Positions 23,952-59,324 of a stretch of 64,000 nucleotides of DNA are shown one piece after another. Position numbers and translations under genes: made by a program. The notes beneath the pieces are model-generated. The model did no database searches and was not told the origin of the DNA. It saw only the letters and a list, made by a program, of their open reading frames with translations. Origin of the DNA: Candidatus Poribacteria bacterium. GTDB lineage: Bacteria; Poribacteria; WGA-4E; WGA-3G. The stretch spans positions 480,001 to 544,000 of the forward strand of contig CAXXLX010000001.1 in the NCBI GenBank assembly GCA_963665235.2, written 5' to 3'. Numbering within the stretch: position 1 is the stretch's first letter; each line of letters opens with the position of its first letter.

Positions 23952-23991
23952 TAAGTAAACTGTAAGAGTATGTCAGAATTTTAAAAAAAAG

Positions 23992-24020
23992 TTGACAATT
24001 TTCGAAATTTAAGATATAAT
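23992..24020 (+). promoter_or_regulatory. Consensus sigma70 promoter (related copies at about 23429 and 26796)
   Basis: TTGACA-17-TATAAT. Confidence 0.8.
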
Positions 24021-24050
24021 GTCCTTGTAAATCATACTTTTATTTGGGGT

Positions 24051-24552
24051 TTGACAATGAAAAACCGACAAGCACAATCGCTATTGAGAAAAGAACGTAG
24101 TAGATGCCTTCGAGCTAGGCAGGATTGTCCGCGCAGAATACCTATCGGTTTCTACATTAACTTTCCGTTAAACCCCCCCCTTAATAAATTTTCTTATTTG
24201 TTAATTATTTTACGTCGTATTGCAGGATTTAAAATCTGCGATATTTCGCGCCCGCACGTACTTCGTCCACGACGAAGTGTACAGTTGCGGGCTTTTGTTG
24301 TTGCATCGGAGTGTACTTCCGTTCCGCATCTGTACCGTGCGTGACAGCGGAATATAATAGGACAGTACACATCGAACAAAACAAATTTAAGGTCTCTGTC
24401 CATTAAACTGTCTGATATAACAGTGTTTAAGGAACTTGATAGTTCACGTAATACTGTTCAATTAGATAACCGAGACCTAATTTACGACACCTTGGAACCG
24501 AGGGAAATCTGTAAATCCCTTTGTGTACCAAAACTATAAGGAGAAATTCTAA
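24051..24552 (+). other. Conserved ~500-nt leader or decayed ORF, copy 1
   Basis: Aligns along its length with 26889-27384; in-frame TGA at 24342. Confidence 0.6.
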
Positions 24553-25002
24553 GTCAATAACCCCCCGCTAAAGCGTGGGGGCTTGTCCAAGATGGTAGCC
24601 ACCCTGTAACTTGGGTGAGGGCAACTTATTGACTACCGTAATATATCGCGATATCGAGGCGTGGCAGCCTCAACGTATCCATTAAAACGCTATAGTCAAG
24701 TGGTAGTTTCTATAGCTAGGTCCTGCTCCCCAAGGGTTGGGTTCATGCGGGTATCGTGATCGGGATGGGGCAATATACACTCCGAAAGGAGACTTACCTG
24801 TTTTCTCAAAGATACCGTGTCAGGTCAAGTAAACAGAAAGTGCGAGTTCTGTTGAACGAAGCAGCACAGTTTGCGAGGAGCGCCTACGGGAAACTTGTGG
24901 CGAAAAAACAACCCGACTCCCCTTTGGGGGAAATCTAAAACGAATAGGAGCGGTGTTTCCTCCCCCGCATAAATGCTGGGGGTTTCCACACCGAATATTT
25001 TG
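24553..25002 (+). mobile_element. Non-autonomous IscB-type (HEARO/omega-RNA) IS200/IS605 element
   Basis: GTCAATAACCCCCCGCTAAAGCGTGGGGGCTTG...TTATTGAC start; terminal hairpin CCCCCGCATAAATGCTGGGGG; followed by ATGA; absent at the paralogous site 27384/27385. Confidence 0.82.
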
Positions 25003-25698
25003 ATGAAAATTATGTTAGTATTAGCAGGATTTATGTTGATGATAGCCTTTGTTATTATCAGCACAAGCGACATGGTATGGGCGGAGGAAGTCTTGGGAAC
25101 AGGAACCGGCTCACTGATAGGCGGCGACCTAACCGACCCAGAAGACGATGGTCAACCTGAAACAGATGACGGTTACAACGCTGTTTTCACAGCCAACGAA
25201 GAACCCGGTTTCGGGGGCGGGGAATCTGCGTTTAACGTCTTCGATAACCGCCTTGGCCCCGGCAATGACAAATGGTGCTGCGGACGTGGCGGCGGCATTC
25301 CGGACGAAGGTCTACACGTGACAGCTGAATTTGACGAGCCGTACGCATTGACACACTTCACCGTATCCTCAGCGAACGATGTTCCTAATAGGGACCCTAC
25401 AGAATGGGAAATTCAGGGGTCGAACGACGGCAAAGAATTCACGACCATCTTTTCTCACAAGGGGGATAGCTTCTGGGATCAGCGACTGCAAGTCGTCCTT
25501 TTTAAGGCTGGAAAAGATTACGACGTTCAAAAAATCGGGTACAAGTTTTTCCGGCATGTTACTTTTAACACCGCAGCGAACCCGGCTGGAGCGTACTTTC
25601 AAATTGGCGAAATAGAGTACTTCGGCGATGATAGTTATCCCGTAGACCCTAGAACCAAGCTCACAACCACATGGGGAAGCATCAAAAACGCCCGATAA
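25003..25698 (+). CDS. Secreted discoidin/F5-8-like beta-sandwich protein with TTTWG tail
   Basis: Signal peptide, FNVFDN..KWCC, SANDVPNRDPTEWEIQGSNDG, FQIGEIEYF. Confidence 0.75.
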   Translation: MKIMLVLAGFMLMIAFVIISTSDMVWAEEVLGTGTGSLIGGDLTDPEDDGQPETDDGYNAVFTANEEPGFGGGESAFNVFDNRLGPGNDKWCCGRGGGIPDEGLHVTAEFDEPYALTHFTVSSANDVPNRDPTEWEIQGSNDGKEFTTIFSHKGDSFWDQRLQVVLFKAGKDYDVQKIGYKFFRHVTFNTAANPAGAYFQIGEIEYFGDDSYPVDPRTKLTTTWGSIKNAR

Positions 25699-25719
25699 GC
25701 ACAAATATCTGACATTTCT

Positions 25720-25761
25720 AAATCGGCTTGAATCCAGTAATAACTGGGTTTAAGCCGATTT
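25720..25761 (+). terminator. Intrinsic terminator
   Basis: AAATCGGCTTGAATCCAGT...ACTGGGTTTAAGCCGATTT. Confidence 0.7.
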
Positions 25762-25932
25762 CCACACAGGTGTCCAATCAGAAACACCCACACTCGGCAT
25801 TAGACTATTTGACACCTATCGAATTTCAACGACAAAACTGCACAAACATTAATAAAGATTGGTATGGTAATGGGTGCAGTTTATTCAAACTCACGTAAAA
25901 GTGAGATTCATTTCTATAGGAGATGGCACATT

Positions 25933-26631
25933 ATGAAAATTATGTTAGTATTAGCAGGATTTGTGTTGATGATAGGCTTTCTTGTTATCGGCACAAGCGA
26001 CATGGCATGGGCAGAGGAAGTCTTGGGAACAGGAACAGCCTCGCTGCTAGGAGGTGACCTAACCGACCCAGAAGACGATGGTAGTCCCGATGCAGACGAA
26101 GGTTACAACGCCATTTTCACAGCCAATGAAGAACCCGGTTTCGGGGGCGGCGAATTTTCCTTTAACGTCTTTGATAACCGCCTTGGCGGCGGCAATGACA
26201 AATGGTGCTGCGGACGTGGTGGCGGCATTCCGGACGAAGGCCTACACATAACAGCTGAACTTGAAGATCCGTATGTATTGACACACTTCACCGTATCCTC
26301 AGCGAACGATGTTCCCGCAAGAGACCCTACAGAATGGGAAGTTCAGGGCTCGAACGACGGCGAAGACTTTACGACCATCTTTTCTCACTCCGGGGATAGC
26401 TTTTGGACTGCGCGACTGCAAGTCGTCCTTTTTGAGGCTGGAAAAGATTACGACGCTCAAACCACCGCGTATCGGTTTTTTCGGCATGTTACCTTTAACA
26501 CCGCATCGAACCCAGCTGGAGCGTACTTTCAAATTGGCGAAATTGAATACTTCGGCGCTGATAGTTCGACCGCTGTAGACGCTAAAGCCAAGCTCACAAC
26601 CACATGGGGAAGCATCAAAAACGCCCGATAA
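25933..26631 (+). CDS. Paralog of the 25003 gene, secreted discoidin-like protein
   Basis: High identity to the upstream gene; AGGAGA RBS. Confidence 0.8.
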   Translation: MKIMLVLAGFVLMIGFLVIGTSDMAWAEEVLGTGTASLLGGDLTDPEDDGSPDADEGYNAIFTANEEPGFGGGEFSFNVFDNRLGGGNDKWCCGRGGGIPDEGLHITAELEDPYVLTHFTVSSANDVPARDPTEWEVQGSNDGEDFTTIFSHSGDSFWTARLQVVLFEAGKDYDAQTTAYRFFRHVTFNTASNPAGAYFQIGEIEYFGADSSTAVDAKAKLTTTWGSIKNAR

Positions 26632-26698: not shown

Positions 26699-26888
26699 AT
26701 ATCCACTTGAAACCGTGAGGGTGAAAACTTTTTTCAAACTCGCGTTTTTGATAAATAAATCGTCCGGCTGAAAATTTGACGATTTCAAAAAAAGGTTGAC
26801 AACTGCCGAAATTTAAGATATAATGTCTTTGTAAATTGTATGAGCGGAAAACTTTGTTACCGCATATCTCATTTTTCATATCCGGGGT

Positions 26889-27384
26889 TTGACAATGCAA
26901 AACCGACAAGCGACATCACTATCCAGAAATGAACGCAATAGATGCCTTCGAGCTAGGCAGGATTGTCCGCGCAGGGTGCCTATTGATTTTAGCGTATCGT
27001 TAAACCCCCCCCTTAATAAATTTTCTTACTCGTTAATTATTTTACGTATCGCAGGATTTAAAATCTGTGATATTTCGCGCCCGCACGTCCTTACGTCCTT
27101 CGTCTATCACGAAGTACTTGCGGGCTTTTGTTATTGCATTGGAGCGTACTTCTGTTCCGCATCCGTACCATGCGTGCCAGCGGGATATAATAGGACAGTA
27201 CGCCTCGAACGAAACAAATCCAAGGTCTCTGTCCATTAAACTGTCTGATATAACAGTGTTTAAGAAACTTGATGGTTCACGTAATACTGCTCAAGTAGGT
27301 AACCGAGACCTAATTTACGACACTCTGGAACCGAGGGGAATCTGTAAATCCCTTCGTGTACCAAAACTATAAGGAGAAATCTAA
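26889..27384 (+). other. Conserved ~500-nt leader or decayed ORF, copy 2
   Basis: Homologous to 24051-24552; frameshifted relative to copy 1. Confidence 0.6.
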
Positions 27385-28230
27385 ATGAATTTCAAAGCTA
27401 TAAAAGTGGTTTGTATCCTCAGCCTCTTACTTACCTCTATTTGGTACGTAAACGCGGTTGATGCACAACTTGATGAAAACACAGTTGCTGGCATGTGGAC
27501 CTTTGAAGAAGGTGAAGGCACAGTCGTCAAAGACCTCTCCGGTAATGGAACCGATGGAGCGTTTGTTGGTAGCTTAGAATGGGTCGATGCCAAATTCGGT
27601 GGTGGGTTAAAGTTTGATGGCACAAACACTTGGATTAAACTCGGAACAAAAGGTGATGCGGATAGTTTAGCGGCTTTGCAAGTTAAGGATTTAGCAGGGT
27701 TCTCTGTCCACGCCTGGGTCTATTCGGAAGTAGCTCCAACTGGCAAATGCGTTGTTTGGAAAGGCCTTGGGTGTTCAACCTGGTCACAGTTCCGTCTGGG
27801 AACAGGTTCTCACGAAAACGGGGACAACAGTACAAAGGCATCGTTTCACATCCGAGCTGGAAACGGCGGTGCTAGGCTTGAAGTTCTCGGTGATGACCTG
27901 CCTGCTGGAGAATGGCTGCATCTCGTTGGCACCTGGGACGGAACCAAAAATCACATCTACGTCAACGGCGAACTCCAAGCATCCGCAGATGCATCACAAC
28001 CCCCTTGGGCATCCCCTGAAGAGGTCTACATCGGGGCCGACCCTGGCTGCGGTAAGCGGGGACAGTGGAACGGTATCATGGACGAAGTCGCTATCTTTAA
28101 CGTAGCACTCTCAGCCGAGCAGGTTGCAGAGCTCGGGCAAGGTCTTGACGCTGCTTTAGGAAGAGCCACACCGGTTGACCCCATCGGGAAAACAGCAACA
28201 ACCTGGGGCAAACTCAAAAATAGGAAGTAA
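27385..28230 (+). CDS. Secreted LamG/concanavalin-like domain protein with TTWG tail
   Basis: WTFEEGEG..DLSGNG, KFGGGLKFDG, WLHLVGTWDG..YVNG, GIMDEVAIFN. Confidence 0.88.
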   Translation: MNFKAIKVVCILSLLLTSIWYVNAVDAQLDENTVAGMWTFEEGEGTVVKDLSGNGTDGAFVGSLEWVDAKFGGGLKFDGTNTWIKLGTKGDADSLAALQVKDLAGFSVHAWVYSEVAPTGKCVVWKGLGCSTWSQFRLGTGSHENGDNSTKASFHIRAGNGGARLEVLGDDLPAGEWLHLVGTWDGTKNHIYVNGELQASADASQPPWASPEEVYIGADPGCGKRGQWNGIMDEVAIFNVALSAEQVAELGQGLDAALGRATPVDPIGKTATTWGKLKNRK

Positions 28231-28390
28231 CGTGCATGTGTTATGGAATAGAACGGTCTGTTTCGACGCTGTTCCAGAACATCGAAAAACTTGCTTTATG
28301 GTGAAGCGATATATAGCGTGTTCCTGTATTTTTTAGTATATTATCGACTGTTTGTTACATAGACAGTCTCAAAAAATAGGAGAAATATAG

Positions 28391-29233
28391 ATGTTTCTTT
28401 ATAAATGTTATGCGAAACTGACACTCACCGCACTTACGCTCATTTTTATCAGTTTTGCCGTGATAACAGTGCCAACTGACGCGAAAATCGACGAAGCTAC
28501 GATTGTCGGAATGTGGACCTTTGAAGAAGGAAAAGGCAATACCGTCGGCGACAGCTCAGAAAACGAGAGCGATGGCACATTTGTCGGCGATCTGAAATGG
28601 GTAAAAGGTAAATTCGGCGGTGGACTGGAGTTTAACGGAGATACGTGGGTTAAGATTGGGGAGAAGGGCAACGCAGACTCCCTAGCAGCCCTAGATTTTA
28701 AAGCCGCCGAAGGATTTTCAATTCACGCTTGGGTCTATTCTGAAGTAGCACCCGGCGGCAAATGTGTAATCTGGAAAGGACTTGGATGCTCAACCTGGTC
28801 ACAATGGCTACTCGGAACCGGGGCACATGAAAACGGGGACAACAGCGCAAGGGCAGCATTCCATATCCGCGCCGGAAACGGGGGTGCTAGAAATGAGGCA
28901 CTCGGCGCTGAACTTCCCGCAAAAGAGTGGATTCATCTCGTAGGTGTTTGGGATGGAGAAAACGTTTATGTCTACGTTAACGGTAAATTATCCGGTGAAG
29001 CCCCCGCAGCAGGCCCCCCTTGGGCTTCAGGAGAGGAAGTTTACATGGGAGCTGATCCTGGCTGTAATAAACGGTGCCTGTGGGACGGTATCATGGACGA
29101 GATTGTTATCTTCAACGTTGTACTTGCTGAAGCTGAAATTAAATCACTCGGCAATGGAATTGAAGGTGCCCTAGCTGTAGATGCCGGTGGAAAAGCAACA
29201 ACGACCTGGGGTAAACTCAAAGCTGTCAAATAG
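28391..29233 (+). CDS. Secreted LamG domain protein, paralog of the upstream gene
   Basis: Same motifs; KATTTWGKLK tail. Confidence 0.88.
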   Translation: MFLYKCYAKLTLTALTLIFISFAVITVPTDAKIDEATIVGMWTFEEGKGNTVGDSSENESDGTFVGDLKWVKGKFGGGLEFNGDTWVKIGEKGNADSLAALDFKAAEGFSIHAWVYSEVAPGGKCVIWKGLGCSTWSQWLLGTGAHENGDNSARAAFHIRAGNGGARNEALGAELPAKEWIHLVGVWDGENVYVYVNGKLSGEAPAAGPPWASGEEVYMGADPGCNKRCLWDGIMDEIVIFNVVLAEAEIKSLGNGIEGALAVDAGGKATTTWGKLKAVK

Positions 29234-52480: not shown

Positions 52481-52873
52481 ATGAGTAAAGATGAAACCGT
52501 CTCTCGGATAAAAAAACGGCGGCTTGAACTAAGCATGACACAGACCCAGTTAGCGAAAATCGCAAACTTAACACCTGCAGCCATCTCACAGTTCGAGTCT
52601 GGGACCCGCAAACCCTCTTTTAACACGCTCGCTGGCCTGTCCGAGGCCCTAAAGGTAACAACAGATTATCTTCTCGGTAAAGAGGAATTGCGATACGATG
52701 ACCTTCTTGCGGACCCGAAGGTTAGTCTCATGTTTAGAGGCATGATGGAATTCACAGAGCGCGATAAGGAAACCCTCTATGAGTTCTATAAATTCCTCAA
52801 GACACAAGCGGATGATGCTACATCAGATGCCACATCAGATGCTACATCAAGTGAAGGTTCATCGGGTCAATAA
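52481..52873 (+). CDS. XRE-family HTH regulator
   Basis: RIKKRRLELSMTQTQLA..ISQFESGTRKP..TTDYLLG. Confidence 0.92.
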   Translation: MSKDETVSRIKKRRLELSMTQTQLAKIANLTPAAISQFESGTRKPSFNTLAGLSEALKVTTDYLLGKEELRYDDLLADPKVSLMFRGMMEFTERDKETLYEFYKFLKTQADDATSDATSDATSSEGSSGQ

Positions 52874-53432
52874 CCCCCAGCTAAAGCATGGGGGCTTGTC
52901 CCTGATGTCCGCCAAGGCTATCACAGGGACGAGGGTAACTTGTTGACTACCGTAATATATCGCAGATGCTGGACGTGGCAGTCCAAAGTATGGTTATCTA
53001 AAAAGGTGGCTTGTTTGTGGTAAAAGCAAGTTGCTGAAGGGTGCTCCCCAAGCCTTAACCCACTACGCTTATGTGATCGGGATGGGGCAATATATACCCG
53101 TGTAAGCGGAGAGCCCGAGAGGGTCCTTACCTGCTTTCTCAAAGAGACCGTGTCAGGTCGGCTCGGAGATGGTGACAGCACTGAAGAGCAGGCTGTTTGC
53201 CTGAATACTGAAAAGAAGCAGCACACTCGGAGAGGATCGCCCACGGGATTGTGGCGAAAAAACAACCCGAAGGAGGAAAACGAATGAACTTCGTTCATTT
53301 GTTTTCCCTCCCCCCCTTTGGGGTAATCTAAAACCGAAAAAGAGGCGGTGTTAGGAGGAAAGCTAATGAACTTCGTTCATTCGTTTTCCCTCCCCCGCAT
53401 AAATGCTAGGGGTCTCCACACCGAATATTTTG
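52866..53432 (+). mobile_element. Second non-autonomous IscB-type omega-RNA element
   Basis: Same GTCAATAACCCCC start and CCACACCGAATATTTTG end as 24553-25002; followed by ATGA. Confidence 0.82.
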
Positions 53433-58918: not shown

Positions 58919-59324
58919 TCTTTTCATCCTCAATATACTTTTTGACAACTTCTAAGGATACACACCCAACCGACGATATGAATTTGGAACGCGTCCACAG
59001 AGAGGGTAAACCGGATTTTAGGTGTGGAAATCCCTCACGCAAGACTTTAGAGGTGAAACCTTTTAGCATCCAAACTGTCCGAGTGACTGGCACTTTCGGA
59101 TTGGTTTCTATGATAAGATGCACAGGGTCTTCCATCACCTCACTGGCACACACCTTAAAATCTAAATCGGTTTGTTTGGAGCATATCAGATGATGCAACC
59201 GTTCTTGTATAGGTTCGGTTAAAACCTTGCGCCGATACTTCGGACACCAGATAACAGGATACTGACAACTATAGACAAGGTTCGTATCAGAATACCAACT
59301 CTTTTCTGGGTTCTTAATAAACAT
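58911..59324 (-). CDS. tnpA: IS200-type Y1 transposase with degenerate HUH motif
   Basis: WCPKYRRKVL, DPVHL instead of DHVHL, LKG, LWTRS, KKYIE. Confidence 0.88.
   Translation of the reverse strand: MFIKNPEKSWYSDTNLVYSCQYPVIWCPKYRRKVLTEPIQERLHHLICSKQTDLDFKVCASEVMEDPVHLIIETNPKVPVTRTVWMLKGFTSKVLREGFPHLKSGLPSLWTRSKFISSVGCVSLEVVKKYIEDEKNV

Follow-up and report, generated by a model that had tools for sequence, protein, structure and literature searches.

A Candidatus Poribacteria bacterium carries a small transposon that lacks any protein gene and sits exactly between the ribosome-binding site and the start codon of a discoidin-domain gene. The window that we analysed is a 64,000-nt stretch (positions 480,001-544,000, forward strand) of contig CAXXLX010000001.1 in assembly GCA_963665235.2, and coordinates below are those of the window unless a prefix is given. 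The element, at 24553-25002, is a 450-nt member of the IS200/IS605 group (ISC1-type) without an open reading frame (ORF), lodged between TAAGGAGAAATTCTAA and the ATGA that opens the gene at 25003. Its parts are an intact omega-RNA scaffold, a structured domain that we call X and a hairpin abutting the target, and it was inserted without duplication at N/ATGA of the gene start (the slash marks the insertion point). The best joint explanation, to which we give a probability of about 0.75, is that this is an element of the ISC1 branch resembling palindrome-associated transposable elements (PATEs) and using TnpA and IsrB in trans, that the near match of its guide to a neighbouring site comes from a duplication, and that an AGGAG motif at its distal end may stand in for the Shine-Dalgarno (SD) motif of the gene.

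The junctions read ...ACTATAAGGAGAAATTCTAA / GTCAATAACCCCCC ... CACCGAATATTTTG / ATGAAAATTATG, with breakpoints between 24552 and 24553 and between 25002 and 25003. Since an unoccupied paralogous site at 27366-27388 serves as a model of the empty site, the ends of the element are fixed to the base. ISC1 elements have a 5'-GTCA terminus, insert at N/ATGA without duplication and lie antisense to TnpA, and ends of the Y1-transposase type are described for ISC elements, as stated in the consulted parts of Kapitonov, Makarova and Koonin 2016 (PMC4810608). What we found at the locus is a specific 4-nt target, an insertion that is clean in comparison with the empty site and no target duplication; subterminal hairpins are present at both element ends, and the genome encodes a Y1 transposase by which the element could be mobilised. 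No IsrB-related coding was detected inside the 450 nt, where blastx returned no more than the final 8 codons, at E>1, and an element of this branch without isrB is classed as a non-coding (PATE-type) derivative. Contigs of 181 nt in two runs of unstated kind match 24402-24582 without difference, so the insertion is present in those two runs also.

An earlier reading of the letters alone (the sequence-only reading) had placed a protein-free omega-RNA element exactly between the SD motif and the start codon, and the lack of an ORF, the junctions and the HEARO-like scaffold bear this out; its coordinates and letters proved correct when the junctions and the second site were re-read. Two of its premises hold as well, as far as the consulted parts of the sources reach: guides of this class derive from the 5' flank (Meers et al., bioRxiv 10.1101/2023.03.14.532601), and ATGA serves the transposon as its target and is at the same time a target-adjacent motif (TAM) accepted by IsrB (Kapitonov 2016; Hirano 2022, PMC9581776).

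A permissive search of 901 nt (24300-25200) with the Rfam model RF02033 (HEARO) gave a plus-strand match to 24553-24778 that covers the whole model (1-211 of 211) at 29.4 bits and E=4.9e-4, full-length and sub-threshold, the gathering score being 83; no Rfam family reached its gathering score anywhere in the 64-kb window. In an alignment of 22 scaffolds from 7 short and 15 long elements (alignment A1), a 40-pair structure has 93.8% of its cells paired and compensatory changes in 21 of the 40 pairs; none of 500 column shuffles reached any of these measures, and slid controls were paired to 30-47%. The element at 24553-25002 forms 40/40 of the covariation-supported pairs, a figure somewhat favoured by construction, the structure having been derived from the same sequences. 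The element itself does not stand upstream of isrB; homologous scaffolds precede isrB in the 15 long elements of the alignment, in one of which (F_3814966) the ORF is broken. We conclude that the omega-RNA scaffold at this locus is genuine and structurally intact. The RNA-library runs (2 of 4 runs compared) hold only contigs of related elements, at an identity of at least 85%, and the high summed contig depth at 24792-24865 stems from contigs with other flanks.

Copies without an ORF are not confined to this site. Seven complete ones occur in the same genome, at different loci and with different flanks, and 24 unique ones in other genomes. They are set apart by an extra stem-loop of about 45 nt with the conserved loop AGUGGUAG, which within alignment A1 (own genome) is present in 7/7 short and 0/15 long elements; this hairpin folds in 13/13 ORF-less copies from 6 genomes, with quite different stems, and when these 13 copies are taken alone, 31 of 47 predicted pairs are compensatory. 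In one other genus, tblastn gave an IsrB match at 0/10 loci with the long-variant scaffold as against 3/4 loci with the short variant. Between genera the ORF-less copies are 69-77% identical, their structure being kept via compensatory changes, and they form a distinct, old lineage spread across several genera.

Domain X, of about 155 nt, sits between the scaffold and the terminal hairpin. Across 10 copies 93% of its cells are paired and 17 of its 30 pairs are compensatory, and 0/500 shuffles reach four of the five measures. The model includes a predicted pseudoknot, in which CGCC (24881-24884) pairs with GGCG (24899-24902) and crosses the pairing of CGGG (24887-24890) with CCCG (24912-24915). 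X is conserved in short elements of 6/24 family relatives. A search for its exact pattern, covering one genome per species, located it in 32 places, all in records titled Poribacteria, and all 26 complete elements from that scan are 442-607 nt long, too short for isrB. Two other identities of X were considered and rejected: a decayed isrB, to which neither blastx nor Smith-Waterman comparison against shuffles showed similarity, and a known RNA, for which the one Rfam result was a partial match to STAXI at E=2.

A further stretch related to X was met in another genome (locus L080 of genome G018, 1283-2171). It is an intergenic stretch of about 890 nt without a long ORF, which begins with an omega-RNA-like GTCAAGACCC hairpin and holds a promoter-like TTGACA...TTTAAT as well as the 55-nt core hairpin of X (corresponding to window 24814-24868) with one compensatory change. 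No Rfam family matches it at E<=1, and the summed depth of RNA-library contigs whose flanks agree with it is high; possibly this is an unknown RNA of high abundance that is related to X.

The family to which the element belongs is large in its own genome, where the 450-nt sequence has 47 blastn matches. A motif scan found 29 omega-RNA 5' ends, which fall into two types, GTCAATAACCCCC and GTAAAGATCACCC; 23 of the 29 pair with a conserved 3' end ...CCGAAKATTTTG, and ATGA then follows in 22 of these 23. As the element is one of 29 such ends, with ATGA behind nearly every paired one, its arrangement is more than chance. Long copies of about 1.26-1.41 kb carry an ORF of about 350 aa. One such ORF was searched and has RRXRR as its only Pfam domain (1.3e-28) and IsrB, 8dmb, as its best PDB match (E=9e-36, residues 3-323). 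RRXRR has 23 matches in the genome; in 20 cases the match falls in an open frame of 336-403 aa, and intact isrB genes number about 20. None of the 7 HNH or 5 HNH_5 matches in the genome overlaps an RRXRR locus. Given the ORF with RRXRR only, the 8dmb match and the lack of HNH overlap, the nuclease family is IsrB, an HNH-less nickase, and not IscB. The sequence-only reading had spoken of an IscB system; searching the genome for iscB or isrB did yield a cognate nuclease family, in the form of some 20 isrB ORFs, and the attribution to IscB has to be replaced by one to IsrB.

As for the transposase, Y1_Tnp has 13 matches in the genome, 8 of them full-length (tnpA). Two tnpA genes, 154 aa, lie near the two ORF-less elements of the window, at 58926-59276 (minus strand) and, just beyond the window, at C1:545730-546080. 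A 25-nt hairpin, ACCCCCAGCTAAAGCATGGGGGCTT, which is common with the first omega-RNA stem-loop, recurs in about 20 further loci of the genome; some of these adjoin tnpA and are candidate mobilisers. The short element at C1:1888074-1888563 is a mosaic: its first ~75 nt belong to the GTAAAGATCACCC type and the remainder shares 97% identity with the element at 24553-25002, which suggests recombination between scaffold types.

The position between an SD motif and an ATG is not peculiar to one element. We counted an SD-like motif when GGAG, GAGG or AGGA lay 8-18 nt before the 5' junction, and a gene start when the downstream ATG opened a frame of at least 100 codons. In the own genome, such an ATG follows 13/23 elements as compared with 17.5% of all 39,675 ATGA sites (binomial 2.8e-5), and an SD-like motif together with such an ATG is found at 8/23 elements as compared with 3.4% of these sites (binomial 6e-7). 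When sites inside long ORFs are set aside by a crude stop-to-stop proxy, the values become 8/17 and 15% (P=0.002). In other genomes, 17/24 unique elements are followed by such an ATG and 10/24 have the SD motif too, these counts being without a null; 7/24, and some elements in the own genome, precede frames of fewer than 100 codons (6-56). Among the downstream frames that were scanned, 13/15 have Pfam families, and the genes include those for ribosomal protein L15, ribosomal protein S1, an ammonium transporter and a Cu/Zn superoxide dismutase. Several of the Pfam domains begin at residues 4-16, which identifies the ATG as the true start. In one genome an element is placed between rpsE and rplO, followed by secY, before the single L15 hit of that genome; in another an element precedes the gene of ribosomal protein S1. 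The element before the only detected rplO is therefore compatible both with transcription through its own length and with translation of the gene that follows. The ORF-less omega-RNA/X elements thus appear strongly enriched exactly at SD/ATG junctions.

An element inserted there parts the gene from its own SD motif, as the sequence-only reading had pointed out. This is correct, but the element holds an SD-like AGGAG of its own at 24946-24950, directly followed by the hairpin 24951-24993 and then by a 9-nt linker to the ATG. In 28/35 ORF-less ends a script located an SD-like motif no more than 9 nt from the hairpin foot, in 12 sequence variants, the background being 8.4% of random 14-nt windows. 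Of the 7 misses, 5 turned out, on reading the printout, to be failures of foot detection, and 2 ends are truly without the motif. The hairpin foot covaries (CGGTGT, CGGGCT, CGGATT), and wherever the inner foot could be located, 7-11 nt separate the hairpin from the ATG. The terminal hairpin itself comes from RNAfold, applied to a set of 31 element ends caught by a regular expression, including a few chance matches outside elements (2941729, 392405). In full-length elements the SD-like motif falls in the last isrB codons; the ORF-less ones are free of this coding constraint. The arrangement suggests that the distal motif may be a portable ribosome-binding site. The terminal hairpin would bring AGGAG to 9 nt from the ATG, where it could stand in for the displaced SD motif of the host, and possession of its own SD motif would make insertion at a start codon tolerable.

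The flank that would supply the guide has a near match not far downstream. At 27366-27384 the 20-nt 5' flank recurs with one T missing, 5-6 nt from the ATGA that follows, and to this extent the sequence-only reading described something real. Its interpretation, that the missing T is an escape mutation or that the paralogous site is bound under RNA guidance, is unsupported, because a duplication explains the match. The region upstream of the host gene and its copy make up a duplication of about 575 nt, about 90% identical with a few indels, and the similarity ends just past ATGA; the last 213 nt of this leader occur only twice in the genome, with 17 differences (92% identity). Both sites end the duplicated region, and therefore the near match of the guide is no independent coincidence. 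A divergence of 8% predicts about 1.6 differences over 20 nt, where 1 indel is seen. The genes behind the two leader copies are not paralogues, since the first has an F5/8 type C domain and the second Laminin_G_3; the proteins are 27% identical. The 213-nt leader is present in 0/40 relatives, which leaves no outgroup to polarise the T indel. The 1-nt indel is best taken as ordinary divergence and the near match as a probable by-product of the duplication.

The duplicated leader has features of its own. Two unrelated operons of secreted lectin-like proteins stand behind it, and within it lie a near-consensus TTGACA-17-TATAAT, a hairpin with a T-run that resembles a terminator (~24249-24300) and a further leader of about 250 nt. 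It may be an unknown regulatory leader or a small RNA.

We also searched all 29 guides over the genome by blastn-short, with a filter that passed over the gapped paralogous site of the window itself. Among the other 28 guides a single near-complete off-site match followed by ATGA was found, that of element C1:1404400; here too the target is the start of a paralogous gene, and its 18 nt contain 2 mismatches where the background divergence is about 12%. Off-site guide matches in 1/28 other elements, together with RuvC motifs that are present by eye in resident IsrB, do not make a picture of TldR-like regulators.

How the element may be maintained can be pictured from what is known of the family. 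In IscB and IsrB omega RNAs the guide precedes the scaffold on the 5' side and is not part of the transposon; it needs transcription from outside, and genes upstream of IscB tend to the same orientation (Meers et al., bioRxiv 10.1101/2023.03.14.532601, consulted parts). IsrB is a nickase with an NTGA TAM, and both TTGA and ATGA serve as TAMs for nicking by DtIsrB; IscB works with standalone omega RNAs (Altae-Tran 2021 as cited in Hirano 2022, PMC9581776, both statements from the consulted parts of the latter). By the mechanism of the family, Y1 transposases (TnpA) encoded elsewhere in the genome would move the element. A host promoter would transcribe it as part of the 5' untranslated region (UTR), and with transcription from that promoter the 20 nt upstream would become the guide. 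IsrB nickases from the ~20 full-length elements could use this RNA in trans and nick the empty site, recognised by guide match and ATGA, after excision, and recombination would restore the element (restorative homing). The occupied site would be protected because GTCA replaces ATGA.

Several points weigh against this reading or against parts of it. The HEARO match misses the family cut-off, and so do all 16 HEARO matches in the genome, including those directly upstream of intact isrB, the best reaching 35 bits. Compensatory changes could in principle predate the loss of the ORF. No RNA-library contig of two RNA-library runs bridges the 5' junction (24552/24553), though contigs cannot show transcripts. 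A full-length element with the extra stem-loop and X was found neither in the own genome nor at the relatives' loci examined. With respect to the AGGAG motif, RNAfold often adds an AAAA/UUUU helix which places GGAG in an internal loop, and the conserved motif could serve transposase binding and not translation. Moreover, the enrichment at gene starts uses a crude ORF-based gene proxy, the elements within a genome are related even if their flanks differ, and the genome assembly itself has 92.6% completeness and 5.65% contamination.

An alternative to a trans-served mobile element would be a guide RNA that binds or nicks the paralogous initiation region at 27366-27388 through a trans-acting nuclease, or a missing T that records an escape mutation. 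That 19/20 guide positions and the correct ATGA are found there, that the genome has isrB genes and that C1:1404400 likewise has a near-matching paralogous site with ATGA (one of its 2 mismatches being beside the TAM) might plead for it. However, the duplication fully explains the match, 1 difference in 20 nt being at or below 8% divergence; the differences at C1:1404400 fit the local divergence equally, one off-site match among the other guides does not make off-site targeting a property of the family, and the resident IsrB ORFs are without signs of inactivated regulators, with RuvC motifs seen by eye in one translation. Cas9-like enzymes in general, though this is not specific to IsrB, usually do not tolerate bulges 5-6 nt from the TAM. 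We regard this alternative as very improbable. A dead relic, that is an internally deleted transposon, immobile and unexpressed, whose RNA has no function, would agree with the missing ORF, the sub-threshold HEARO score, the lack of a contig across the 5' junction (with the limit just given) and the existence of a 5'-truncated copy at C1:419213-419536. Yet a relic would hardly keep all scaffold pairs intact, nor would it be met at so many different loci with different flanks, in this genome and elsewhere, nor in a lineage that has diverged between genera while its structure was kept by compensatory changes, and we consider it unlikely.

It is also conceivable that the element or X was co-opted as a cis-regulatory 5' UTR module acting on translation or mRNA stability, its omega RNA being incidental. 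Enrichment exactly at SD/ATG junctions, a covarying structured domain with a pseudoknot, the conserved SD-like motif at the distal end and the tolerance of elements before rplO and rpsA homologues could all be read in this way. On the other hand, the downstream genes have no function in common (ribosomal proteins, a transporter, superoxide dismutase, oxidoreductases, lectin-like proteins), some elements, as mentioned above, precede only short frames, and a pure UTR role leaves the structural selection on the omega-RNA scaffold itself unexplained; this makes co-option quite improbable. A bolder version of the preferred reading, in which TnpA and IsrB act in trans, would see the ORF-less elements as guide-only hyperparasites on both proteins, docking at SD/ATG junctions in a translation-neutral manner by means of the portable SD motif, with X as a new RNA module replacing the nuclease gene. 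They would dock where a host promoter transcribes the guide; with the SD motif set by the terminal hairpin at working distance from the host start codon, even essential genes such as rplO would tolerate them, and X might have a role in processing, in stability or in coupling to translation. We put this version forward tentatively, as a possibility that we doubt more than we favour.

Features of the locus and its surroundings (window coordinates)
Feature	Positions	Strand	Basis
Upstream (promoter/leader) region of host gene; copy at 26782-27384	23978..24552	+	local alignment
Predicted 20-nt guide (5' flank); holds host SD AAGGAG, 24538-24543	24533..24552	+	sequence; placement after the consulted parts of the Meers preprint
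IsrB-type omega-RNA scaffold, HEARO-like	24553..24790	+	RF02033 match, covariation alignment
Extra stem-loop GCUAUAG / loop with AGUGGUAG / CUAUAGC, ORF-less lineage only	24689..24716	+	alignment, folding
Module X, putative structured RNA domain in the place of isrB	24790..24945	+	covariation, no isrB similarity
SD-like AGGAG, directly 5' of terminal hairpin	24946..24950	+	sequence
Subterminal imperfect hairpin CGGTGT...ACACCG, target-abutting end (left end in TnpA orientation)	24951..24993	+	RNAfold
9-nt terminal linker AATATTTTG	24994..25002	+	AAKATTTTG kept at 22/23 paired ends
ATGA, transposon target and TAM; also start codon and first base of codon 2	25003..25006	+	family pattern, literature
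Host gene, 231 aa, intact, F5/8 type C (discoidin) domain	25003..25698	+	Pfam PF00754, E=1.6e-7
Unoccupied paralogous site ACTATAAGGAGAAATCTAA + ATGA	27366..27388	+	sequence, alignment
Second ORF-less omega-RNA/X element, 567 nt, then ATGA opening a 307-codon frame	52866..53432	+	blastn, motif scan

The host gene is 82% identical to the next gene (listed ORF 25864-26628), in which the conserved segment MKIMLVLAGF lies internally. Four lectin-like proteins of the neighbourhood (F5/8 type C and Laminin_G_3; 25003-26631 and 27385-29233) share the C-terminal motif TTTWG-x-[IL]K-x-x-[RK], which could be a sorting signal. A small inserted hairpin (GAAAACGAATGAACTTCGTTCATTTGTTTTC-like) occurs twice in the second ORF-less element, and mini-hairpins similar to GAAAACGAATGAACTTCGTTCATTTGTTTTC are also seen inside several full-length elements, e.g. 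C1:2522249 and C1:3020110.

What is known already should be separated from what seems new. Protein-free omega RNAs and the ATGA target are known, and in the form in which it was first described the locus fits an established class without anything unusual; HEARO RNAs with no ORF next to them have reportedly been seen before, and Weinberg 2010 does not mention HEARO. A long-lived, guide-only transposon lineage with an added structured RNA domain, a concentration at start codons and an SD-like motif by the terminal hairpin is not something that we met in the searchable text of papers. Regarding the lodging of such elements at start codons in particular, literature searches gave nothing relevant, supplements and possible insertion-site tables lying outside the search. 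That IsrB uses these RNAs in trans, that the guide is expressed and that the SD motif is portable is what we infer. If the latter is true, an RNA-guided transposon would have a way to get its guide, which is encoded outside the element, transcribed while leaving the host gene unharmed, and the use of guide RNA by IsrB in trans, together with the rules of scaffold compatibility, would become directly testable.

A hairpin that bridges an SD motif and a start codon has a precedent in phage T4 gene 38, where the intervening hairpin brings a distant SD motif to working distance of the start codon. Unlike that case, the proposal made here comes from geometry and conservation, and the hairpin would double as a transposase-binding end.

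Among transposons, the closest likeness is to ISC1-1_MA of Microcystis, with which the element shares the 5'-GTCA, insertion at N/ATGA without duplication, subterminal hairpins, presumed Y1 mobilisation in trans and, where a gene is present, an HNH-less Cas9-like one; in contrast, the lineage described here has no isrB and carries a structured RNA of about 155 nt in its place. The term 'start codon' does not occur in the consulted text of the paper on ISC1 elements (Kapitonov 2016, PMC4810608). Like standalone omega RNAs and HEARO, the element has a scaffold without an adjacent nuclease gene and a proposed action in trans; it differs from standalone omega RNAs, compared here through the citing sentence only, in that the partner family would be IsrB, in the extra stem-loop and X, and in being a complete transposon with both ends. 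With PATEs related to ISGst it has in common that these are short IS200/IS605 derivatives with transposon ends and no protein gene, moved by TnpA in trans, but in the consulted part of the preprint these are described only as sharing transposon ends, with no mention of a start-codon preference (Meers et al., 10.1101/2023.03.14.532601). Finally, the resident IsrB resembles the partner of the DtIsrB-omega RNA complex (PDB 8dmb; PMC9581776, consulted in part) over about 320 aligned residues (E as given above), and a 5' guide and NTGA/ATGA TAMs would be common to both; unlike the DtIsrB scaffold of about 284-300 nt, the scaffolds adjacent to isrB here have about 200-215 nt, and the ORF-less variant has about 240 nt and, in addition, X.

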